Shown piece by piece: positions 45,143 through 54,779 of a stretch of DNA of 64,000 bases (position 1 is its first letter; each line of letters starts with the position of its first letter). Made by a program: the position numbers and the translations under genes. The stretch is taken from contig OY764159.1 in NCBI GenBank assembly GCA_963668175.1, forward strand, positions 2,496,001-2,560,000, in the 5' to 3' direction. The notes beneath the pieces are model-generated. The model saw nothing but the letters and a program-made list of their open reading frames with translations, searched no databases and had not been told where the DNA came from. This DNA comes from Syntrophales bacterium. Lineage in GTDB: Bacteria > Desulfobacterota > Syntrophia > Syntrophales > PHBD01.

Positions 45143-46033
45143 TCACGGATTTTCGAAACGGAATGTCTCCAGGCGGGTGTTTTCCAGGTCGATGTGAAGC
45201 ATGGCGTGACGGTAGAGGTTCCCGCGTCCCAGGAGGATCTTGAGGACTTCCATCGCCTGGAAGGCGCCGATGACGGCGGCGGTTGCCGCCGGAACGCCGA
45301 GAAGGGCCTCCGGCCGCCTTGCCGCGTCGCCGGCAGGACCGGCGTTTCCATAGAGGAGTTTCAGTCCGGAGTCGCCCGGGTACACCGTCATGATCCGGCC
45401 CTCGAAGCCGGCCAGGGCGCCGTGGACGAGCGGCGCGGGCAACCGGCGGCAAATATCCTGCAGCACGAGGCGGTCCGGCACGCTGTCCATGCCGTCGACG
45501 ACGACATCGGCGCCGGCCAGCAGTCTACTGCCGGAGGCGGCGGTCAATCGCTCCCGGTGCGGTGTGACGACGACGCCGGGATTCACGTCCGCAACGATCC
45601 GGGCGGCGGTTTCCGCCTTCGACGCCTGCAGAACGGCAGCGCTGCTCAAGGCCTGGCGGTTCAGGTTCGATTCGTCGAAGACGTCGTCGTCGACAACGAC
45701 GAGCCTTCCCACTCCGGCGCGCGCCAGAAGAAGGACGACATGCCCGCCCAGCCCTCCCGCGCCGACGACGGCGACGATTGCTTCGGCAAGCCTGAGCTGT
45801 TCGGCGGGCGTGATGATGTCCCGGTTGCGGAGGTAACGGCAGGGGTAAACGGGGATACGGAGGGCGGCGCGGTAGACGTCGCCCGCCTCCGCGCCGTGCC
45901 GGCGGGCTATTTCCAGGGCGGCCCGGTCCTCGATGGCAAGGACGTCGCGCCCGGCCGGGTCGGCGATCCGGACAGCTTTTGCTTCGATGTCCCGGGTGAT
46001 GTCGGCGTTCATCGGCATCGCAACCTCTTCCAC
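45143..46033 (-). CDS. ThiF/MoeB/HesA family adenylyltransferase
   Basis: RYLRN, GAGGLG and DDDVFDESNLNRQ; no CxxC zinc pairs. Confidence 0.9.
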   Translation of the reverse strand: MEEVAMPMNADITRDIEAKAVRIADPAGRDVLAIEDRAALEIARRHGAEAGDVYRAALRIPVYPCRYLRNRDIITPAEQLRLAEAIVAVVGAGGLGGHVVLLLARAGVGRLVVVDDDVFDESNLNRQALSSAAVLQASKAETAARIVADVNPGVVVTPHRERLTAASGSRLLAGADVVVDGMDSVPDRLVLQDICRRLPAPLVHGALAGFEGRIMTVYPGDSGLKLLYGNAGPAGDAARRPEALLGVPAATAAVIGAFQAMEVLKILLGRGNLYRHAMLHIDLENTRLETFRFENP

Positions 46034-46151: not shown

Positions 46152-46394
46152 GTGTTGATTGAAATAAATCTCTATGCCTCCCTGGCAGCCTTTCTTCCCC
46201 GTGCCGAAAGGGTAACCGCCGGACCTATGCTCGATGTGGACGAAGGGACGACGATCCTCGAACTCCTGCGACGCTTCCAGGTCCCCATGGAGCAGGTGAA
46301 GATGATCTTCCTCAACGGGGTACATGCGACGGGGGAGGAAGTCCTTCACGAAAGGGACAGGGTGGGCGTTTTCCCGGCCGTCGCCGGGGGCTAG
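46152..46394 (+). CDS. MoaD/ThiS family sulfur-carrier protein
   Basis: 80 aa, INLYASL...IFLNG...DRVGVFPAVAGG, ending in GG. Confidence 0.92.
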   Translation: MLIEINLYASLAAFLPRAERVTAGPMLDVDEGTTILELLRRFQVPMEQVKMIFLNGVHATGEEVLHERDRVGVFPAVAGG

Positions 46395-46508: not shown

Positions 46509-47132
46509 TCAGACGATCCGGAGTTCCAGCCGGACATATCCCGCCGGAAAATCCCGCACGGGGACGGAGGCCGGGTCGATAGCCTCGCCGTCCGCCTCGG
46601 CCGCCATGCAGCCGTCCCGCCATCCGGCGGGCGGGTTTCGGAGGAAGTCCTTCATCTCCTCGGCGCTCAATTCGATACCCTTCTCCAGAAACAAGGGCCC
46701 CAGCTCCCGGATGGTCAGGTTGAAAAGCTTTACGGTGATCCTGCCTTCCGCCGCCGCAGGCGTGTCCGTCTCCTCCTCATGGGTAATGCCGTTTCGCATC
46801 CCGGCATAAAATCCCCCGCGCCGCAAGGTTGCACCCAGGACGCCGGGCATGGCCGACGAGAGGGCAAGGACCGATCCGTCCCGGACGACGGCCGTATGCA
46901 GGTCGTCTATGGGCTTGCCGTTCAGGAAGATCGTCTGGATCCTCTTTTCGATGTAATCGTCGGGGAGGCCGAACCGGCCGGACAGAAGCTCGCGGACGCT
47001 GCCGCCGGTCCGGACTTGCTGGGCAAAACCCTGCTGCAGAATGGGGAAGAAGAAGGGAACGAAAGCCGCCCTCACGTCCAGGCGGAGGCGGCTGGTTGCG
47101 TCCTTGATCTGTCGAGGCGGTTCTCCGTTCAT
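46509..47132 (-). CDS. AOR-associated hypothetical protein with an internal MoaD/ThiS-like segment
   Basis: SVRELL...IQTIFLNGKPIDDL...DGSVLALSSAMPG followed by a C-terminal extension; immediately downstream of aor. Confidence 0.7.
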   Translation of the reverse strand: MNGEPPRQIKDATSRLRLDVRAAFVPFFFPILQQGFAQQVRTGGSVRELLSGRFGLPDDYIEKRIQTIFLNGKPIDDLHTAVVRDGSVLALSSAMPGVLGATLRRGGFYAGMRNGITHEEETDTPAAAEGRITVKLFNLTIRELGPLFLEKGIELSAEEMKDFLRNPPAGWRDGCMAAEADGEAIDPASVPVRDFPAGYVRLELRIV

Positions 47133-47203: not shown

Positions 47204-48940
47204 TTACCAGTTGTAGACCCTGTCCAGATCGGCATCGGAGACCTGGAAGACGATGTTGTGAGGCGGCAGGGGCTCCTTCTTGAAGAACTCGGGCAGCCGG
47301 TCCTGCTGGGCAGTGAAGCCCGCCCGCTTGTTGAAGTCCCGCTCCATCGTCAGAATCTTCTTGCCCAGGGCGGTCACGTCGTCGCCCGTCAGGTTGAGAC
47401 CGTAAAACGCATTGAGAAGGTCGAGGAGGGCCTGGAAGGTCTCGGGCTGGTCGAGGACGGCGAAAGCGATGAACAGGCACATGCCCGTCGCATCGATGGC
47501 GGCGGTGGCGATCTGGAGATCGCGGGAAAGCTCGATCTGTCCTTCCGGCTTCAGGGGATCGACGAACCCCCCTACCTTGAGGACGTTGGCGGTGACCGCA
47601 TAGCCTGCCGTGTGGTCGGCGCCCATGGTGGTCGTGGCGTAGGTGACGCCCATGCCCTGGATGGCCCGGGGATCGTAAGCCGGAAGGGCCTGTCCCTTCA
47701 CGACGGGGACACGCTCCACGCCGAACACCCTGCCCGTCACAGCCGCCCCGTTTCCGAGAATGCGCCCCAGGGGTGTTCCCTTGCCGACTTCCTTGATGAG
47801 GCCGATGGCGGCCTGGGCGTCGCCGAATTTGGCCAGGCCAGCCTCCATGGCCACGCCGATGGTCGCGCCCATCTCGATGGTATCCAGGCCGTAATCGTCG
47901 TCGAGGCGGTCGAGCATGGCGACCGCATCGAGGTCGTCGATGCCGCAATTGGCGCCGTGGGACCAGACCGTCTCGTATTCCGGCTGCTTGGTCAGGTAAT
48001 GGCCGTCCTTGTCCATATAAATGCCGGAGCACTGAATCGTGCAGCCCCGGTGGCAGCCGTGAACCGGGTTGCCGCCGCGGGCCTTTTCGGTTTCGGCCTG
48101 CGTTTCGCCGCTGATCCTGGACACGCCGGGGAAGCGGCCCCACAGGAAGTTGTTGGTGGGATAGCCGCCCGTCTCGTTGATGACGTTGGCGAGGACATTG
48201 GTGCCGTATGTGGGAAGGGCCTCCCCGGTGACGGGATGCTTCTTGAGGCCGTCGACGAAGGCCTTGTTGGCGGCCCGAAACTTTTCCGGGTCCTTCGGGG
48301 CGCGCATCGTCGTCCCCGTATCGTCCAGAACGATCACCTTCACGCCCTTGGCACCCATAACCGCGCCGACTCCGCCGCGCCCGGCATGGCGCGTGGGCCG
48401 TAATTCCATGTCGGTAAAGGCGACGGACGCTGCGGACATCTTCATCTCCCCGGCGGGCCCGATGGAGATGCAGGCGATCTTCTCCCCGAATTCCCGCTTC
48501 ATCTTGTCGACGAGATCGTAGTTGCCGAGCATCTTCAGGCTGTTGTCCGCCGTAGCCTTCACGCCGTCCTTGTTGATGAATATCTTATAGAGATCTCCGT
48601 TCTTGGGCTTTCCTTCCAGGATGATGCCGGCGTAACCGAGGCGGGCCAGGACCTGGGAAGGCTGCCCTCCGGAGTTGGCCTCCTTGATTCCTCCCGTGAG
48701 AGGGCTCTTGCAGCCCACGGATATGCGGCCAGACATGGCCGCCTGTGTACCGCTCAACATTCCCGGCGCGATGATCAGCTTGTTGTCCTCGCTCAAAGGA
48801 TGGGTCAGCGGCGGCACTTCCCGGGAAACCACGGCGGACGTCAACGCCCGTCCCGCCAATCCTGCGTATTCCCCCAGTGAATCCGCGGTTGCCTTCGGCC
48901 CCCCTTCGGCCCCCATATCGATCCTGAGTAATTTGTCCAT
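47204..48940 (-). CDS. aor: Aldehyde:ferredoxin oxidoreductase (tungsten-pterin family)
   Basis: KSPLTGGIKEANSGG, GRGGVGAVMGAKG, CHRGCTIQC, PEYET, DDYGLDT, GADH and GMC motifs. Confidence 0.95.
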   Translation of the reverse strand: MDKLLRIDMGAEGGPKATADSLGEYAGLAGRALTSAVVSREVPPLTHPLSEDNKLIIAPGMLSGTQAAMSGRISVGCKSPLTGGIKEANSGGQPSQVLARLGYAGIILEGKPKNGDLYKIFINKDGVKATADNSLKMLGNYDLVDKMKREFGEKIACISIGPAGEMKMSAASVAFTDMELRPTRHAGRGGVGAVMGAKGVKVIVLDDTGTTMRAPKDPEKFRAANKAFVDGLKKHPVTGEALPTYGTNVLANVINETGGYPTNNFLWGRFPGVSRISGETQAETEKARGGNPVHGCHRGCTIQCSGIYMDKDGHYLTKQPEYETVWSHGANCGIDDLDAVAMLDRLDDDYGLDTIEMGATIGVAMEAGLAKFGDAQAAIGLIKEVGKGTPLGRILGNGAAVTGRVFGVERVPVVKGQALPAYDPRAIQGMGVTYATTTMGADHTAGYAVTANVLKVGGFVDPLKPEGQIELSRDLQIATAAIDATGMCLFIAFAVLDQPETFQALLDLLNAFYGLNLTGDDVTALGKKILTMERDFNKRAGFTAQQDRLPEFFKKEPLPPHNIVFQVSDADLDRVYNW

Positions 48941-49240
48941 CTTGATCCCTCCTTGCTGAATGGTTTACGCCCTGAAAACCGGGGCCGTCCTTCCGCCGGG
49001 GTAACGTCCCGAAGATATCCGCGCTGCAGGCATGCGTCGACGGGAACGGACGCCTTGTTTCCAAACCCTCGATACGCTCATTCATTTTTTCGAAGGAGAT
49101 GCCGCCGTTTCTCTCCTTTCTTCAGCGGACGATATTCGATGCGCTTGCGATGATACGCTTTACGTCGAACCGCTCAAAGACGTTGGCAATGCGAGCAAGG
49201 ATGAAGTGGAGACGAATGCTGTAAGAGATGATAGGTCACT

Positions 49241-49296
49241 ATATGATTTGTATCATATACAAATTTTTAAAAGATGCAACATGTCAAATTTGACAT
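49241..49296. promoter_or_regulatory. Cluster of palindromic operator-like sites in the divergent aor promoter region
   Basis: ATATGAT-N4-ATCATAT (49241-49258), ATTTGTAT-N3-ATACAAAT (49246-49264) and perfect 16-bp ATGTCAAATTTGACAT (49281-49296). Confidence 0.6.
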
Positions 49297-49497
49297 AATG
49301 CACGCCTGTCCGGGGTTTGCCGCATCCCGACGAGGGGAGGTTTAAGAAAAGAAATCTTTGGTCCGGCAGGGACAGTCGGGCTTTTCGAGGATCTTTCCTT
49401 CCCCCCGCGCGGCGCCGATGTTCATTTGCTCTTGCCAAACGGCCTGTCGGTGCCTTATACTGACTTGGAGAAAGTACTTGGAAAAGGAACGCTTTAC

Positions 49498-50232
49498 ATG
49501 AACATCACGGCCTATATCGGCATCGACGATACGGACAACCTGGAAAGCCCCGTCGGCACAGGCAAAGTGGCACGCCAATTCGAACCGCTCCTGCCCGGGG
49601 GCGTGCGGCTCAGGGGCGTCGTGCGCCAGCAGCTTCTCGTCGACGCACGCATCCCCTATACCTCTCATAACAGCTCCGCCTGCCTGATCGTCGACTGCCC
49701 GGATGTGACATGCTTCCGGACGGTCCGGGAGAGGATCGTCCCCTACCTGGAGCAGTCGGCCGCCGAGGGCAGCGACCCCGGCCTGTGCATCGCCGCTGCG
49801 GGTGACGAAGCGCTGGACGCCCTCATGGCGTTCGGGAAACGCTGCACGAACACCGTCGTGACCCAGGACGAGGCCAGGAGGGCCGCTGCCGGGGTTCATC
49901 TTTCATGTCACGGCGGCACCTGCGACGGCATCATCGGCGCGGCCGCTGCCGTAGGGCTGACCGCTTCGGGCTGGAGTGGGCGGTTCATCGAGTACAACGG
50001 GCTTCGCAACTATCCCGATCCGGTTTCGGTGGCGGACCTTGCCGCGGCGGGCATCGTCGTCGTGTCCGTCGACCGGGACGCCGTCGTACCGATGCCCGCG
50101 GACCTGATAGAAACAGGGGGCTGGCTGCGGCCGAGGCTTATGGGCCACCGGGCTGTCCTGCCGGTTATGCCCGACGGGCCGGGCCGGTGGAAGAGCTTCG
50201 GAGGGAAGAGAAACAAACACAACGCCAAATAA
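49498..50232 (+). CDS. Stand-alone TiaS (DUF1743)-like N-terminal-domain protein
   Basis: YIGIDDTD, IPYTSHNSSAC, SDPGLC and GIIGAAAAVG motifs; too short to include the TiaS tRNA-binding domains. Confidence 0.7.
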   Translation: MNITAYIGIDDTDNLESPVGTGKVARQFEPLLPGGVRLRGVVRQQLLVDARIPYTSHNSSACLIVDCPDVTCFRTVRERIVPYLEQSAAEGSDPGLCIAAAGDEALDALMAFGKRCTNTVVTQDEARRAAAGVHLSCHGGTCDGIIGAAAAVGLTASGWSGRFIEYNGLRNYPDPVSVADLAAAGIVVVSVDRDAVVPMPADLIETGGWLRPRLMGHRAVLPVMPDGPGRWKSFGGKRNKHNAK

Positions 50233-50245
50233 AGGAGGACCGACC

Positions 50246-50455
50246 ATGCCGGGACAGATTTTTTACCGCGAAAGAAGGAAGGTGAGCGAGAAGGAGAAGA
50301 AACCCCGCTTTAAACTCGTGGCGTCGGCGGGCGTCGACATCGCCTTTTACGGGGACCACCTGCGGAAGAAGGAACTGGAGCAGATCGCCGAGGCCGTCGG
50401 GGCGCAGCTTGTGCTCCTGAAACACGGCGAGAAGGACGAAGAAGTCGAACTCTAG
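50246..50455 (+). CDS. Small hypothetical protein
   Basis: Strong AAGGAGG RBS; host-like codons; operonic between the TiaS-like and MoSto-like genes (alternative GTG start 50282). Confidence 0.7.
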   Translation: MPGQIFYRERRKVSEKEKKPRFKLVASAGVDIAFYGDHLRKKELEQIAEAVGAQLVLLKHGEKDEEVEL

Positions 50456-50495
50456 GCGCTCCGTCCGCGATACGCAGCCATCAGAGGAGGAAGAC

Positions 50496-51323
50496 ATGGC
50501 GCTCTACAGGGAACGCGACGGCAGACGTCTGCACGTGAAAAGCAAACTCATGGGCGAGTCCCTCGTGGGCAAGTCCTTTCTGGACGGCCTCAAGATTTCG
50601 CCGCAGCAGCGGCTCTTTCCGGACGTCAACGTGATCAAGATCGGCGGGCAGTCGATTTCCGACCGGGGGGCCAAGTACCTGCCCGCCCTGATCAAGGAGA
50701 TCGGCGCGGCCAAGAAGAAGCACCAGATGCTCGTTATGACCGGCGGCGGCACTAGGAGCCGCCACATCTATTCCATCGGCCTGGAACTCGGCATGCCGAC
50801 GGGCATCATCGCCAAGTTCGGAAGCTCCGTGTCGGAACAGAACGCGCTCCTCATCGCCACGCTCCTTTCCCCCTGGGGCGGCATCAAGATCGGCCACGAC
50901 GAAGTCCTGAAACTCTCGACCTACCTTGCCCAGGGCTGCATCCCCGTCATGCACGGCATGCCGCCCTACGACTATTTCGCCATCCCCGCGTCGAACCACA
51001 TCCCCATCCACCGGACCGACGTCGGCACCCTCATCGTCGCCGACCTGATCGGCGCGAAGAGCTGCATCCTGGTGAAGGACGAAAAGGGTCTCTTCACCGA
51101 CGATCCCAAAAAGAACGACCGGGCCGAATTCATCCCGGAGATCGGCGCGAAGACCCTGATGGAGATGGACCTGGACGACCTCGTCATCGAGCGCCCCTGC
51201 CTGGATATCCTCCAGAGGAGCGAGGTGATCGACCGGATCCAGATCGTCGACGGCCTGACGCCCGGCAATCTGACGAAGGCCCTCGCGGGCAAGCACGTCG
51301 GCACCATCGTCTACAAGGAATAA
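50496..51323 (+). CDS. Molybdenum/tungsten storage protein (MoSto)-like, amino-acid-kinase fold
   Basis: VIKIGGQSISDRG, TGGGTRSRH, EQNA, GMPPY, IPIHRTDVG, VKDEKGLFTDDP and GLTPGNLTKALAGKHVGT match remembered Azotobacter MosA/MosB sequences. Confidence 0.82.
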   Translation: MALYRERDGRRLHVKSKLMGESLVGKSFLDGLKISPQQRLFPDVNVIKIGGQSISDRGAKYLPALIKEIGAAKKKHQMLVMTGGGTRSRHIYSIGLELGMPTGIIAKFGSSVSEQNALLIATLLSPWGGIKIGHDEVLKLSTYLAQGCIPVMHGMPPYDYFAIPASNHIPIHRTDVGTLIVADLIGAKSCILVKDEKGLFTDDPKKNDRAEFIPEIGAKTLMEMDLDDLVIERPCLDILQRSEVIDRIQIVDGLTPGNLTKALAGKHVGTIVYKE

Positions 51324-51439
51324 CGCCGGGCGCCTTTGATGGCAGTGCCCGCGCCGCCGGGTTTATGTCCGGGAATGCCCCGATGCCCGGTGCCGGGACG
51401 TCCGGGAATGAACGTGCCTTGCCTTATCGCCGCCGCGCT

Positions 51440-51461
51440 GATATATCTCAAAACACACAAC
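51440..51461 (+). promoter_or_regulatory. Possible ModE/TunR-type operator upstream of tupA
   Basis: AT-rich imperfect palindrome GATATAT-N8-ACACAAC, 24 bp before the start; a degenerate match to GTTATRT-N8-AYATAAC. Confidence 0.35.
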
Positions 51462-51484
51462 AATCATCCGCCAAGGAGGATGCC

Positions 51485-52357
51485 ATGAAAGATACCATGA
51501 AACAGGTGGTTGTCGCCATGATTCTGAATATGTTGTTGATTCTGCCCGCGTGGGCGGCCGGCGGAGGGAGCGGCTTCATCCTACTTTCGACGACGATCGG
51601 GCCCATCGATTCGGGCATTGTCGGCGTCCTGGAAGACGCCTTTGAGAAAGAGACGGGCATCCGCGTGCGCCACGTGGGCGCCGGGACGACGGCCGCCTTG
51701 GAACTGGCGAAGAAGGGCGAGATCGACGTCGTCATGGCCCATGCCAAGTCCGCGGAAGATGCCTTCGTCAAGGAGGGGTTCGGGACGGCGCGGTATCCCC
51801 TCATGTACAACGACTTCGTCATCGTCGGCCCGGCCGCGGACCCGGCGGGGATCAGGGGCATGGCGTCCGCCGCAGAGGCCTTGAAGACGGTTGCGGCGAA
51901 GGAGGCGCTCTTCGTCACCCGCGGCGACAAGTCGGGGACGCACCTGGCGGAGTTGGCGATCTGGCAGAAGGCGGGCGTGAAGCCCGTGGGCGGCTGGTAC
52001 CGCGTCTTCGAGAAAGGGGCCGAGGGGAACGTCCCGACGCTGCTCTACACCGACGCGCAGAAGGCTTATACCTTCATGGATCGGGCCACGTACCTGACGC
52101 TGGGAAACAAAATCAATCTTGCCGTCCTCGTCGAGAAGGACGAGGCGCTCCTGAACCGCATCACGCTCATTCCCGTCAATCCCAAGAAGCTCCCGAAGGC
52201 GAATTACGCCGACACGATGACGTTCGTCAACTGGCTCACCGACCCCGGCAAGGGCCAGCTCGTCATCCGCGACTTCGGCCGCGACAAATACGGAAGCCCC
52301 TTGTTCTTCCCCGACTCCGAGGCGTGGGTGAAGGAGCAGGGGAAGCAATCGAGGTGA
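51485..52357 (+). CDS. tupA: Tungstate ABC transporter substrate-binding protein (TupA family)
   Basis: Signal peptide; STTIGPIDSG, MYNDFVIVGP, TRGDKSGTH and YTFMDRATY motifs. Confidence 0.85.
   Translation: MKDTMKQVVVAMILNMLLILPAWAAGGGSGFILLSTTIGPIDSGIVGVLEDAFEKETGIRVRHVGAGTTAALELAKKGEIDVVMAHAKSAEDAFVKEGFGTARYPLMYNDFVIVGPAADPAGIRGMASAAEALKTVAAKEALFVTRGDKSGTHLAELAIWQKAGVKPVGGWYRVFEKGAEGNVPTLLYTDAQKAYTFMDRATYLTLGNKINLAVLVEKDEALLNRITLIPVNPKKLPKANYADTMTFVNWLTDPGKGQLVIRDFGRDKYGSPLFFPDSEAWVKEQGKQSR
52273..52357 (+). repeat. Repeat A copy 1 (tupA 3' end)
   Basis: Core CTTCGGCCGCGACAA at 52273-52287 is identical at 53889-53903 and 56370-56384. Confidence 0.9.
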
Positions 52358-52448
52358 GCAGGGGGGGCGGGGGGGGCTGCCGGATTGACGATTCCTGATA
52401 ATGAAGGAAGCGCGCCTTAAAAGCGTCAGGACAGATTAAGGTTAAGGT

Positions 52449-53129
52449 ATGATTGATTGGTGCGAAAAAAATTCTTGGGTAGCTGTTTTTGACATCCTCG
52501 GCTTCAAAGAACAGATTCGTCAATCTGGCAAAGAATTACAGCGACATTTATTAAAGAGTAAGCTCGATAACCTGTTAAAAGAATTGGAAGATGAAGTAAG
52601 GAGTCTTGGGAAACTAGAGTATGTTATCTTCTCCGATACGATCGTTATTTTTGCTCCTGATTTAGAACCACGTTCGTATCCATTCTTTCTCCTTCAATGT
52701 ACGAAATTTATAGAGAACTCCATAACCATCAGATTGCCCGTCAGGGGTGCCATTAGTGTTGGGAAATCTTTCATTTCCCATTCGCCAGTCATGCTCATAG
52801 GTCCATCTTTCCTTGAAGCCTATGAATACTGCGAAGATCAGAACTGGATTGGACTTCTGCTGAGTCCTTCTGCTACACTTGAATTACGAGAAGCCGAACT
52901 AGAACCACAACGGCATAACTTCATATCGGACGATGCTGACATCCCACTCAGAAAACAGGCAAAGACTAATATCTTGGCATATCGATTTCAAAATGGAGAA
53001 TCAAATCATGAAAGCCATTTACTCCCTTATCTGGAAGAAATGGCGCATTTTGCCGCTGACAAGAATAAAGAAAAATATTGGAAGACGATTGATTTCATTA
53101 AGAAACACTATAAATATATAAACCGTTAA
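52449..53129 (+). CDS. AT-rich class III nucleotide-cyclase-like protein
   Basis: FDILGF, FSDTIV, RGAISVG and GPSFLEAY pattern; markedly AT-rich compared with the flanks. Confidence 0.65.
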   Translation: MIDWCEKNSWVAVFDILGFKEQIRQSGKELQRHLLKSKLDNLLKELEDEVRSLGKLEYVIFSDTIVIFAPDLEPRSYPFFLLQCTKFIENSITIRLPVRGAISVGKSFISHSPVMLIGPSFLEAYEYCEDQNWIGLLLSPSATLELREAELEPQRHNFISDDADIPLRKQAKTNILAYRFQNGESNHESHLLPYLEEMAHFAADKNKEKYWKTIDFIKKHYKYINR

Positions 53130-53230
53130 TGCATAAATCAAGATGGTTTTCGCCTTGAAAAATCGGCCGTTTTCCGTGCTTTTGGTGTGGGTAAAATATT
53201 TTAACGGTAGGATTAATATTAGCCCTGTCG

Positions 53231-53411
53231 GGCATCGCCTAAGCGTTGCGTCGTTGGCAACGGCCAGACAGCGGCCATTCTAGAAGCTTCCGGCATTGGC
53301 GACCAGGGTGTTTTGAAAACGCCCGACGCCGTGGGCCTCGTGCATATGGCCGCAAATGCAAAGGCCGACGGGATTCGCTTCGAGAAAAGCCATGACGCTG
53401 CGGTTGCCTAC
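53231..53411 (-). pseudogene. Repeat B copy 1: 3' remnant of a calcineurin-like metallophosphoesterase gene
   Basis: Translates VGNRSVMAFLEANPVGLCICGHMHEAHGVGRFQNTLVANAGSF*NGRC, with an in-frame TAG at 53280-53282. It has the GHxH motif and no 5' part. Confidence 0.7.
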
Positions 53412-53427
53412 CCGCCGGGGTTCCTTT

Positions 53428-53760
53428 TCACATATTGTTGATCAGGCGGTAATACTCCCTGATGTTGCGGATCGATTCCATCGTGGCCTGGTAGAGGAAC
53501 CAGCTCAGGATGAGGATGACGATGGTGAGGCCGATCTTCCACGCCCGCGATGTGCCGGGGCGGAGCCAGATCAGGGGCAGGGCCAGGGGGCCGACGCACA
53601 GGACCGCAATGACGATGAAGGCGGTCCGGAAGTAGAAGGGAACCTTTTCCTTGGCAAGGCATGGTGGGCCGGGCCTCGCGGATGAGAGAAATTCACCGCA
53701 GTGCTTGCACTTGATGGCGGCGTCCTGGATGTCCTCGGCGCAGTAGGGGCACTTCTTCAT
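53428..53760 (-). CDS. Zinc-ribbon domain membrane protein
   Basis: MKKCPYCAEDIQDAAIKCKHCGE followed by two TM segments. Confidence 0.85.
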   Translation of the reverse strand: MKKCPYCAEDIQDAAIKCKHCGEFLSSARPGPPCLAKEKVPFYFRTAFIVIAVLCVGPLALPLIWLRPGTSRAWKIGLTIVILILSWFLYQATMESIRNIREYYRLINNM

Positions 53761-53784
53761 GATCGCCTCGCTTCTTTGGGCCTC

Positions 53785-53850
53785 GCGTCGGTCAGACTAT
53801 ATAGAAACGCCGCGCGGGAGTCAAGATCGCGGTGATCTTCGCGAATCGCC
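53785..53850 (-). promoter_or_regulatory. Repeat C copy 1, containing a sigma-70 promoter
   Basis: Minus strand TTGACT-CCCGCGCGGCGTTTCTA-TATAGT (17-bp spacer); near-identical copy at 56272-56338. Confidence 0.8.
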
Positions 53851-53882
53851 TCGCCATGAAGGAAGGGAGCCTGGCGCATCGG

Positions 53883-53931
53883 CCGCGACTTCGGCCGCGA
53901 CAAGTTCGGCAGCCCGCTCCGTCTCCCGGAC
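53883..53931 (+). repeat. Repeat A copy 2 (degenerate tupA 3' fragment)
   Basis: 21-bp exact match to 52267-52287; reads RDFGRDKFGSPLRLPD versus tupA RDFGRDKYGSPLFFPD. Confidence 0.85.
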
Positions 53932-54053
53932 AAGAGTATTGTCTTGACTTTACGGGATGAAGGGAAGATGATATCCCCATAGTCGCATAGCGAGGCTGAG
54001 GGGGTAAATCTCTCCGGGACCTCCGCCCCACAGAGGGGCCGAATATACTGTTG

Positions 54054-54092
54054 AAACCCTGTCTATTACGATTAGATGGGGTTTTTGTTTTT
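54054..54092 (+). terminator. Intrinsic terminator inside the 5' leader of the YodL-like gene
   Basis: 12-bp stem AAACCCTGTCTA/TAGATGGGGTTT (two G-U pairs), 7-nt loop, TTGTTTTT tail. Confidence 0.6.
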
Positions 54093-54126
54093 GAACGGGC
54101 TTCAATAACAGGGAGAGGGGAAGACG

Positions 54127-54423
54127 ATGAAGACATATACGATCTGGTATAGGAAGGAGCCGACCTATTGGTTCGACCGCGGCCTGAAGGTCGAGGATGT
54201 TTACAGCGCGTGTTTCAGAGTCGGTCAGATTCAAGCCGCTTGCCTGGACGAAGTATTTCAGAATCAGCAGGCGGAGGTTTGGAATCGCGAGGAAGAAAGG
54301 AAAATGACGGAAATCGTAAAAAGATGGGGATTGCGCGATGCCTCCATGAGCGTGGGAGATATCGCGGAGGTCGACGGAAAATTCTATCAGGTCGCCCTGT
54401 CTTGCTGGAAACAGATGGATTGA
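54127..54423 (+). CDS. YodL-like hypothetical protein
   Basis: LDEVF...SMSVGDI...YQV...WKQM pattern; purine-rich RBS. Confidence 0.65.
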   Translation: MKTYTIWYRKEPTYWFDRGLKVEDVYSACFRVGQIQAACLDEVFQNQQAEVWNREEERKMTEIVKRWGLRDASMSVGDIAEVDGKFYQVALSCWKQMD

Positions 54424-54779
54424 TGCGAGAGAGGGCATGGGCGCGACGCTTTGCCCGTCGTGCGGCGGACACCGGGCAAGGATGCCTCTTCCCGAAGGAG
54501 GCCCCGATTCGGGAGATGCGTCGCAGAAGCCGGAAACGGATTAAAGCAATACTCCCGACAAAAACAATATTCGTGTAAAAAACAGACGATGCCCATGCGA
54601 ATCGAACCAGCCGGGGAAGGGGAAAAGGGCCGGTTCGACGAATTGCTGCGCCCGAAACAGTCCGTTTTACCCCGACGCCTTGACGTTCGTCCGGCGTATT
54701 CGATATCCCCGCGCGATACGAAGTCGAGGCCCCGCTCGACGCTGTGGGCGCGTGCGGCAAAGTTGAGAATGGGAAGGAT

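Follow-up and report, generated by a model that had tools for sequence, protein, structure and literature searches.

A candidate tungstate/molybdate acquisition-and-buffering module with a one-gene relative of the molybdenum storage protein in a Syntrophales bacterium

The molybdenum storage protein (MoSto) is known from one aerobic nitrogen fixer. TiaS, the archaeal tRNA(Ile2) agmatidine synthetase, carries a catalytic cluster of aspartates and an autophosphorylated threonine (Thr18), and the remainder of the protein beyond its kinase domain (TCKD) consists of OB and zinc-ribbon domains which bind tRNA. Relatives of both proteins are encoded close together, with a small protein between them and a TupA-family protein behind them, in a 64,000-nt stretch of DNA (the window; positions 2,496,001-2,560,000 of contig OY764159.1, assembly GCA_963668175.1) from a Syntrophales bacterium, whose genome is complete in one contig of 4.57 Mb. 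The four genes are referred to here as G1, g2, g3 and the tupA-like gene (g4). Judged by homology, fold, single-copy status, synteny and phyletic patterns, their locus is on balance probably a tungstate/molybdate acquisition-and-buffering module of three separable parts.

Several of the related systems have been treated in publications, of which excerpts were consulted. According to the excerpt of a paper from 2019, homologues of MoSto are not known (PMC6448029). For the acquisition and storage of tungsten (W), the excerpts of two recent papers name only Tup and the TOBE-domain protein Tub (PMC13328260, PMC11980592), and Tub was presented in 2025 as the first physiological tungstate store (PMC11980592, excerpt). 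An arrangement in which a Class I WOR is accompanied by WorX and ThiF has already been described (PMC13328260, excerpt), and the TupA of D. alaskensis has a TTTS anion-binding motif together with Arg118 and Thr124 (PMC5517513, excerpt). No paper linking one-gene MoSto relatives, a small partner or a TiaS-like protein with W or molybdenum (Mo) loci in anaerobes was found among the matches listed by our literature search. In the source annotation, relatives of g3 appear as 'uridine kinase', 'uridylate kinase' or 'molybdenum storage protein'. Since the last of these labels is already in use, the homology between g3 and MoSto cannot itself count as new; what is added here is the architecture, the partners and the W context in anaerobes.

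The MoSto relative and its small partner

The third gene, g3 (50496-51323, + strand), encodes a 275-aa MoSto-like protein with the amino-acid-kinase fold (PF00696, E = 5e-25). Searched against the PDB, it matched the MoSto beta subunit (2ogx_B, E = 1.9e-63 over residues 18-272) and the alpha subunit (2ogx_A, E = 7e-48), compared with E = 1.8e-8 for the best UMP kinase (2ij9). A hand count on the alignment gave about 44% identity with beta (112 of 256 columns). The segments KIGGQS, TGGGTRSRH, GMPPY, HRTD and VKDEKGL align with beta and are invariant or nearly so across 50 orthologues, among which 68 columns are invariant, including the N-terminal R11, L12 and H13 as well as G154, P156, P157 and Y158. 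Met149 of MoSto beta, within GMPPY, is reportedly the gate for molybdate entry, and the motifs of the nucleotide groove are likewise said to have defined roles. These groove motifs and the equivalent of Met149 are present in g3; the residue is Met in the co-directional type of locus described below and Ile in the convergent type.

The first-pass annotation of the window had proposed a single-subunit MoSto, and this was confirmed. Instead of genes for the two paralogous subunits that make up the (alpha-beta)3 hexamer of MoSto there is one gene only, g3 being the sole MoSto-like gene in the complete, one-contig genome (profile search, all frames of at least 200 aa; the next match is PyrH-like, E = 2e-6). 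Public databases hold at least 4496 relatives of g3 at E ≤ 1e-10. A quick maximum-likelihood tree was calculated from 50 single-gene forms, the Azospirillum alpha (n = 2) and beta (n = 1) subunits and a PyrH-like outgroup from the host. The Azospirillum alpha and beta subunits formed one group (SH-aLRT 90), whose sister was the single-gene clade of the convergent type (97), and the co-directional single-gene type was placed towards the root. This branching gives a lead that the one-gene forms may be the older state, and it is taken as a lead only because the tree is a quick one with a very long outgroup branch and several rows of deviant composition. Broken copies of g3, split into two frames, were seen in genome G188 (C21:52239-53067) and in locus L065 (11080-11905).

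Between G1 and g3 lies g2 (50246-50455, + strand), which encodes a 69-aa protein matching no Pfam or NCBIfam family and no TOBE domain. Its N-terminal half is basic (IFYRERRKV..EKKPRF) and its tail acidic. Members of the family have 65-75 aa and share the invariant residues I5, F6, R8, R10, P20, R21, H38 and E43 in a 63-sequence alignment. The AlphaFold2 model (predicted local distance difference test score, pLDDT, 76.8) consists of two beta-hairpin strands, a helix and a strand; the best VIA match had Z 4.5, hence no fold was assigned, and a structure-cluster search (Atlas) returned unnamed clusters only, mostly from Thermodesulfobacteriota.

Loci containing G1 were collected from one genome per species with a 14-sequence G1 alignment as the query. 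At least 512 loci were obtained, and the best 80, mostly from Syntrophales, Syntrophobacterales, Desulfobacterales and unclassified 'delta proteobacteria', were analysed with 10-kb flanks where the contig allowed. Counts made by tblastn in these loci (g3 at a coverage of at least 50%) are lower bounds, because many loci stop at contig ends. In 61/80 loci g3 was present, either co-directional with G1 (G1>g2>g3, 38/80, g3 67-81% identical) or in a convergent arrangement (G1> <PadR g2> <g3, 23/80, g3 about 50% identical). The small gene g2 was detected in 64/80 loci, among them every one that bears g3 (61/61), so that g3 without g2 was seen in 0/80; the reverse, g2 with no g3, was seen in three loci, of which two are at a contig end. 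It also lies directly upstream of g3 in all six further single-gene loci (L101, L110, L111, L115, L116 and L117; profile, E = 9e-36 to 8e-31). The same profile gave no match (E ≤ 10, all frames) in any of five two-subunit loci, namely three tandem pairs of the phylum and two Azospirillum mosB-mosA plasmid loci. Among the loci examined, g2 is thus a specific and constant partner of the one-gene MoSto forms. Co-folding of g3 with g2 gave a score of 0.00 (mark 0.32), which speaks neither way.

The tandem MoSto-like pairs were found in five genomes of the phylum (G042, G054, G087, G115 and G131), none of which contains G1. Three of the pairs (L112 in G042, L113 in G115 and L114 in G131) are 38-51% identical to g3 and are accompanied by neither g2 nor G1; TupB/TupC genes adjoin two of the three, and in each pair one member is without the N-terminal ~38 residues. 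As a separate observation, the string YRER is common to the N-termini of g2 (..IFYRERRKV.., 50246-50290) and g3 (MALYRERDG.., 50496-50540), both of which are highly conserved, and this may be chance.

The TiaS-type kinase domain and its transporter neighbours

The first gene, G1 (49498-50232, + strand), encodes a stand-alone protein of 244 aa. It has no Pfam match itself. Against the NCBIfam model of TiaS (422 positions, cut-off 600 bits) it scores 22.3 bits with E = 4.3e-5, its residues 5-172 covering positions 3-170. When a profile of 57 family members was used, the only matches in the PDB were TiaS chains (3u02, 3au7, 3amt and 4rvz; E = 3.5e-16 to 1.4e-14), and PF22641 (TiaS_TCKD) matches 39 of the 57 members, the copy in the window not being one of them. 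The AlphaFold2 model of G1 (pLDDT 95.6) found TiaS chains only in Foldseek at E ≤ 0.001. In VIA it superposed on 3amt_A with Z 21.4 and a root-mean-square deviation of 2.0 over 150 aligned residues (model ~2-222 on chain 0-220), the next unrelated match having Z 7.7. The TiaS-like domain named in the first-pass annotation is accordingly weak by NCBIfam and firm by family profile and fold.

The residues D10, D11, T12, D13, T21, N58, G144, G147, G161 and R162 are invariant in the 57 sequences. The DDTD, T21, PYT..N (T55/N58) and GxGxIGAxA(AVG) motifs of G1 coincide with those of TiaS, and T21 stands at the position of Thr18, seven residues after DDTD. The solved TiaS chains have 417-440 aa, and the structural alignment stops at TiaS residue 220. 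G1 therefore has the TCKD and its catalytic residues, lacks the C-terminal domains of TiaS and scores below the equivalog level; being without the rest of TiaS, it is regarded as a TiaS-type kinase domain and not as a TiaS. Its C-terminal ~85 aa are beta-rich and gave no separate match in Foldseek or VIA, where the search was made with the whole model only and the matches are filled by TiaS. A likeness of G1 to HPPK (pterin pyrophosphokinase; Z 6.1-6.5, Foldseek probability 0.91) was set aside as a common ferredoxin-like arrangement. The G1 family comprises 3693 matches at E ≤ 0.001, in 829 clusters at 50% identity, and nearly all members are stand-alone proteins of ~240-260 aa. Broken copies occur here as well, with an in-frame stop TAG in genome G041 (C86:3645-4364) and TGA in genome G008 (L008).

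The neighbours of G1 in the 80 loci were grouped by de novo clustering of open reading frames (ORFs) and a Pfam scan of the cluster representatives. A W/Mo transport gene or a TunR-like regulator was present in 49/80 loci, an aldehyde:ferredoxin oxidoreductase (AOR) or formate dehydrogenase (FDH) gene in 17/80 and any W/Mo gene in 53/80. Together with the presence of g2 and g3 in 61/80, the gene-neighbourhood analysis that the first-pass annotation had recommended was thus positive. A TupC-like ABC ATPase with a TOBE domain occurs in 42 loci, its most frequent position being directly 5' of G1; TOBE domains are found here on TupC-like ATPases only. Other neighbours are TupB (25 loci), TupA-type proteins (at least 21), a regulator with HTH_17 and PBP_like domains (19), ModA (13), MOT1 (9), DUF364/DUF4213 (8), FmdE (8) and a selenocysteine (Sec)-split FdhA with FdhB and cytochrome b. 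The HTH_17 plus PBP_like architecture is one which we take to be the tungstate-responsive TunR family. Typical orders are TunR-TupA-TupA'-TupB-TupC-G1-g2-g3 and fdhA(Sec)-G1-g2-g3-DUF364-FmdE-TupC-TupB-ModA. In nine Smithella/Syntrophus-type loci (L030, L032, L038, L039, L042, L043, L055, L056 and L063), G1 adjoins a Sec-split fdhA-fdhB-cytochrome b operon on the opposite strand; next after G1 come DUF364/DUF4213 and FmdE genes and a transporter of the Mod/Tup type.

No g3 was found in 19 of the G1 loci. Four of them end less than 2.5 kb 3' of G1, seven are of a TonB/ECF type, six have no recognisable W/Mo neighbour and two have Tup genes, of which L029 is without g2 and g3, and L079 has g2 with g3 not detected. 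In the seven TonB/ECF-type loci (L044, L051, L059, L075, L092, L098 and L100), G1 lies in a cluster of a TonB receptor, ABC ATPase, CbiQ and S-component. The cluster is recurrent: the same seven and L102 (G023:C21), L103 (G032:C2), L118 and L120 combine a TonB-dependent receptor, two ABC ATPases, a CbiQ-like T component and an ECF S-like component, with G1 copies that are divergent (35-54% identical). A TunR-like gene stands beside the TonB/ECF-type cluster in G219 and in G032, a genome with G1 only. Possibly the cluster is an undescribed outer-membrane and ECF-type uptake system for W/Mo or a chelated form of them.

Of 41 related genomes, 19 have G1 and 16 have g3, every g3-bearing genome also having G1 (16/16). 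A 201-genome sample of the phylum contained g3-like genes in 17 genomes and G1 in 10; of the 12 single-gene MoSto genomes in it, nine have G1, adjacent to g3 in five and elsewhere in four. The G1 profile gave no match in the 11 further loci (six single-gene, five two-subunit), and G1 was found in none of 10 MoSto-bearing Azospirillum plasmids. Genetically, G1 is coupled to W/Mo importers, either directly after tupC or within TonB/ECF-type clusters. G1 therefore tracks the transporters and not the store, and because its two recurrent contexts are both importers it is better called a transport-associated than a storage component.

In keeping with a demand for tungsten in the host, its genome contains four AFOR_C matches (three by tblastn with the AOR of the window), three FDH catalytic genes and FmdE. 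It also has one short MogA/MoaB-like MoCF_biosynth gene (199 aa) and two ~424-aa MoCF_biosynth frames, taken as MoeA by size alone. The idea that G1 replaces MogA/MoaB was dropped, as these genes are present.

Variant TupA, the control region and the aor side

As the first-pass annotation had it, four co-oriented genes run divergently from aor, and the first three are tightly spaced. The ORF listing and a check of start codons gave gaps of 13 nt between G1 and g2, 40 nt between g2 and g3 and 161 nt between g3 and the tupA-like gene, and a 557-bp spacer between aor and G1. A scan found no terminator-like site on the + strand in the gaps between the four genes, the sole + candidate being a weak 5-pair stem within G1 (49880-49897).

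The tupA-like gene (51485-52357, + strand) encodes a 290-aa periplasmic binding protein (PBP) of the TupA family with a signal peptide. Its ATG at 51485 is preceded by AAGGAGG and gives a product length in agreement with orthologues; an upstream ATG at 51365 is likewise open. Similarity to TupA of the PBP fold is clear (PF12849, E = 2e-31; 3lr1, E = 1.1e-56; 5my5, E = 2.4e-51), and the product reaches 155.9 bits against NF041772, whose cut-off is 400. It carries STTIGPIDSG and FVTRGDKSGT, so that TTTS is replaced by TTIG and the equivalents of Arg118 and Thr124 are kept in TRGDKSGT. A canonical tupA'-tupB-tupC(TOBE) operon lies at ~0.70 Mb of the genome (tupA' ~703343-704182; L106 2814-3800, minus strand), its TupA' having ATTTSTQDTG, and the window has no tupBC. 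The TupA of the first-pass annotation is thus right as to the family (3lr1, 5my5); as a canonical TupA it did not stand, given TTIG, a score below the NCBIfam cut-off and the remote tupBC. Two classes of TupA occur in tandem in relatives (L021, L022, L024, L026, L027, L050 and L073). The upstream class, to which the window's protein belongs, has S(T/S)TIGPIDSG and (T/S)RGDKSGT, and the downstream class has ATTTSTQDSG and SRGDNSGT. Possibly the variant class prefers another oxyanion.

Just 3' of the tupA-like gene, the window at ~52400-54500 has a GC content of 0.52, compared with about 0.60-0.63, and ORFs without families; a small zinc-ribbon membrane protein is encoded inside this stretch (53428-53760, minus strand). 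The low-GC stretch is possibly an insertion that split tupA from tupBC.

The divergent control region between aor and G1 (48941-49497, 557 bp) was studied by its sequence, a promoter scan and genome-wide pattern counts. A promoter-like site, TTGCCA-18-TATACT, lies upstream of G1 (49432-49461, + strand). The spacer also contains two perfect palindromes, TATGAT-N4-ATCATA at ~49242-49257 and TGTCAAATTTGACA at ~49282-49295. The latter is one of three occurrences in the genome of TGTCA-N4-TGACA with an A/T spacer, as counted post hoc. The second copy (L104 ~2743, genome position 1378242) is 246 bp 5' of a Sec-type fdhA and beside a 139-aa gene with HTH_1 only (ModE-N-like), and the third adjoins unrelated genes. 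The palindrome is a possible shared operator, put forward as a candidate from a search made post hoc. No Rfam family reached its gathering score in the whole 64-kb window, hence no molybdenum or tungsten cofactor (Moco/Tuco) riboswitch was found.

On the other side of the spacer, aor (47204-48940, minus strand; AFOR_N, E = 1e-53; AFOR_C, E = 1.6e-82) encodes a single-subunit, tungsten-type AOR in the layout of a Class I WOR. Directly downstream of it is a 207-aa gene (46509-47132, minus strand), labelled Ubl-like in the first-pass annotation and without a match in Pfam or NCBIfam, followed by an 80-aa ThiS/MoaD-like gene (46152-46394, + strand), likely WorX, and a ThiF/MoeB-like E1 gene (45143-46033, minus strand). 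With AFOR_N and AFOR_C in one subunit and both a ThiS-like gene and thiF close by, this side corresponds to a Class I WOR with WorX and ThiF. ThiF and a MoaD-like gene are beside aor as first annotated, the MoaD-like gene being on the + strand and not co-oriented with aor.

An AOR-family gene lies within 10 kb in 5/80 G1 loci, and the orthologous aor-207aa-MoaD-ThiF arrangement in one of them, the Syntrophorhabdus locus L050, where the 207-aa gene is kept with aor at 41% identity. AOR-family genes occur in 37 of the 41 related genomes irrespective of G1 or g3, that is, near-universally in the order. The juxtaposition of the aor cluster with the G1-g2-g3 triad is therefore considered local and outside the conserved module, and the proposed tie of the module to aor failed. 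Of the uptake-storage-cofactor module for W envisaged in the first-pass annotation, the W/Mo synteny remains; the tie to aor and the canonical TupA do not, and G1 follows the transporters and not the store.

Function of the module and comparison with known systems

In the acquisition-and-buffering module that we favour, the variant TupA would depend on the permease and ATPase of TupBC, whose genes lie far from this locus. By homology to the Azotobacter MoSto, g3 would form a homo-oligomeric cage, into whose cavity ATP drives the oxyanion so that polyoxometalate clusters form. As g2 occurs only with one-gene MoSto forms, we infer that it stands in for the function of the second subunit, and it might supply that subunit's contribution by closing the ATP groove or by lining or capping the cage. 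For G1, the most likely role would be an ATP-dependent reaction that acts either on the metal species brought in or on the transport or storage proteins. Storage, homo-oligomer formation, W as the main cargo and the roles of g2 and G1 are accordingly put in the conditional, as deductions from homology and context.

Several facts weigh against this interpretation. G1 is not required for the store, because three of the 12 single-gene MoSto genomes lack it (G113, G150, which is complete in one contig, and G161), and in four others it is remote from g3, lying in a TonB/ECF-type cluster in G023, G160 and G219 and among ABC-ATPase, FmdE-like and TupA-like genes in G146. About six of the 80 G1 loci have no recognisable W/Mo neighbour (L069, L082, L089, L090, L095 and L097). 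G1 may also not be specific for W/Mo, since a haloarchaeal homologue (43% identity) adjoins a chelate-type transporter (Peripla_BP_2-FecCD-ABC). Furthermore, Mo rather than W is possible as the cargo, because the TupA of the window has no TTTS and ModA and MOT1 occur in some loci.

A doubtful extension of the favoured module combines both of its unusual proteins: in G1, as a bacterial and archaeal family, the TiaS kinase domain would have been recruited as an ATP-dependent enzyme for imported tungstate/molybdate or a chelate, and g2, as the missing second component, would enable an ATP-driven polyoxotungstate cage of a single MoSto-type subunit. Within this joint reading, G1 might be an oxyanion kinase or a release factor which passes the metal on from importers of the TOBE-bearing or ECF/TonB kind, either into storage or to cofactor insertion.

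It is unlikely that the module is meant for molybdate rather than tungstate, or handles the two metals alike, buffering Mo for molybdoenzymes as in diazotrophs. The characterised relative does store Mo, and the ModA-type genes in 13 and MOT1-type genes in 9 G1 loci fit this idea, as does the TTIG of the window TupA in place of the tungstate-associated TTTS (PMC5517513, excerpt). The two presumed MoeA agree with it too, since a pair of MoeA copies has been interpreted as indicating synthesis of the W and the Mo cofactor alike (PMC13328260, excerpt). However, genes of the TupA, TupB and TupC types and TunR-like regulators are found more often than any other neighbour, and canonical TTTS-bearing TupA' proteins are encoded in the same operons of relatives. 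The hosts, moreover, are anaerobes living by syntrophy or sulfate reduction, and they have many genes for AOR-family enzymes and Sec-FDH, both of which use W in the relatives that have been studied. Uptake of W by the MoSto of A. vinelandii is also recorded (PMC6448029, excerpt).

Quite improbable, in our estimate, is that g3 (with g2) is an oxyanion or small-molecule kinase making an activated intermediate for W/Mo cofactor synthesis, such as phospho-tungstate, nucleotidyl-tungstate or a pterin precursor in phosphorylated form, with G1 as a second ATP-using enzyme. The fold of g3 is a kinase fold, an operon with two ATP-using enzymes and a small protein looks like a cassette for biosynthesis, and the genes are linked to transporters and W/Mo enzymes. 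The proposed mechanism of MoSto itself is said to open with a molybdate-kinase step, which counts in the same direction. Yet the full-length identity of g3 to MoSto is far above its likeness to any small-molecule kinase. No known cofactor step is vacant, because the MogA/MoaB-like gene and the two presumed MoeA are in the genome, and an obligate two-enzyme pathway is disfavoured, because G1 and g2-g3 separate freely among genomes. That G1 is unrelated to metals and merely shares operons, being a TiaS-like enzyme that acts on nucleotides or RNA, or else a protein kinase, is very improbable: its only known relative modifies tRNA and about six loci have no W/Mo neighbour, but it has nothing beyond TiaS residue ~220 and stands, in several families, in W/Mo transport operons built in two independent ways (the Tup type, and the TonB/ECF type together with a TunR-like regulator).

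The acquisition-and-buffering module would be of wide relevance. One-gene relatives of MoSto number in the thousands; they have a small protein as their constant partner and often a kinase-like companion, in tungstate/molybdate uptake operons of anaerobes whose formate and aldehyde metabolism depends on W/Mo. If the proposal is true, it would explain how syntrophs buffer scarce metals, show a homomeric form of the ATP-driven cage and reveal a role of the TiaS kinase fold outside tRNA modification. If the joint reading also held, the cage would be the main tungsten store of syntrophic and sulfate-reducing anaerobes.

Compared with known systems, the aor side has aor, the 80-aa ThiS-like gene and thiF in common with a Class I WOR with WorX and ThiF, and differs by the extra 207-aa gene without a family between aor and the ThiS-like gene. 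The TupA of the window is a full-length relative of the TupA of TupABC systems (D. alaskensis, 5my5; Geobacter, 3lr1) with equivalents of Arg118 and Thr124, whereas it has TTIG for TTTS, scores under the NCBIfam cut-off and stands apart from tupBC; in relatives it precedes the canonical TupA' in the same operon. The Tub/Mop protein Tub of Eubacterium limosum has the same proposed role, holding W for tungstoenzymes in a Tup-importing anaerobe (PMC11980592, excerpt). As described there, Tub is a hexamer of a ~70-aa TOBE protein which holds 8 oxyanions and uses no ATP, so that fold and mechanism are unrelated to those proposed here, and g2 is of similar size without a TOBE domain.

With TiaS, G1 shares the superposition of the TCKD and the DDTD, Thr, PYT..N and GxGxIGAxAAVG motifs, whereas G1 is bacterial, is without the tRNA-binding part and has metal transport rather than translation as its context. 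The closest system to g3 is the MoSto of Azotobacter vinelandii (MosA/MosB; 2ogx, 4f6t and 6gu5). Both have the same amino-acid-kinase/UMP-kinase-derived fold, align over their full length, carry the nucleotide-site motifs and GMPPY, and are linked to W/Mo supply. MoSto is encoded by two genes and belongs to aerobic diazotrophs, and the Azospirillum mosB-mosA loci have neither G1 nor g2, whereas the form described here has one gene and an obligatory 69-aa partner missing from two-subunit loci, and occurs in strict anaerobes beside tup, fdh and aor genes.

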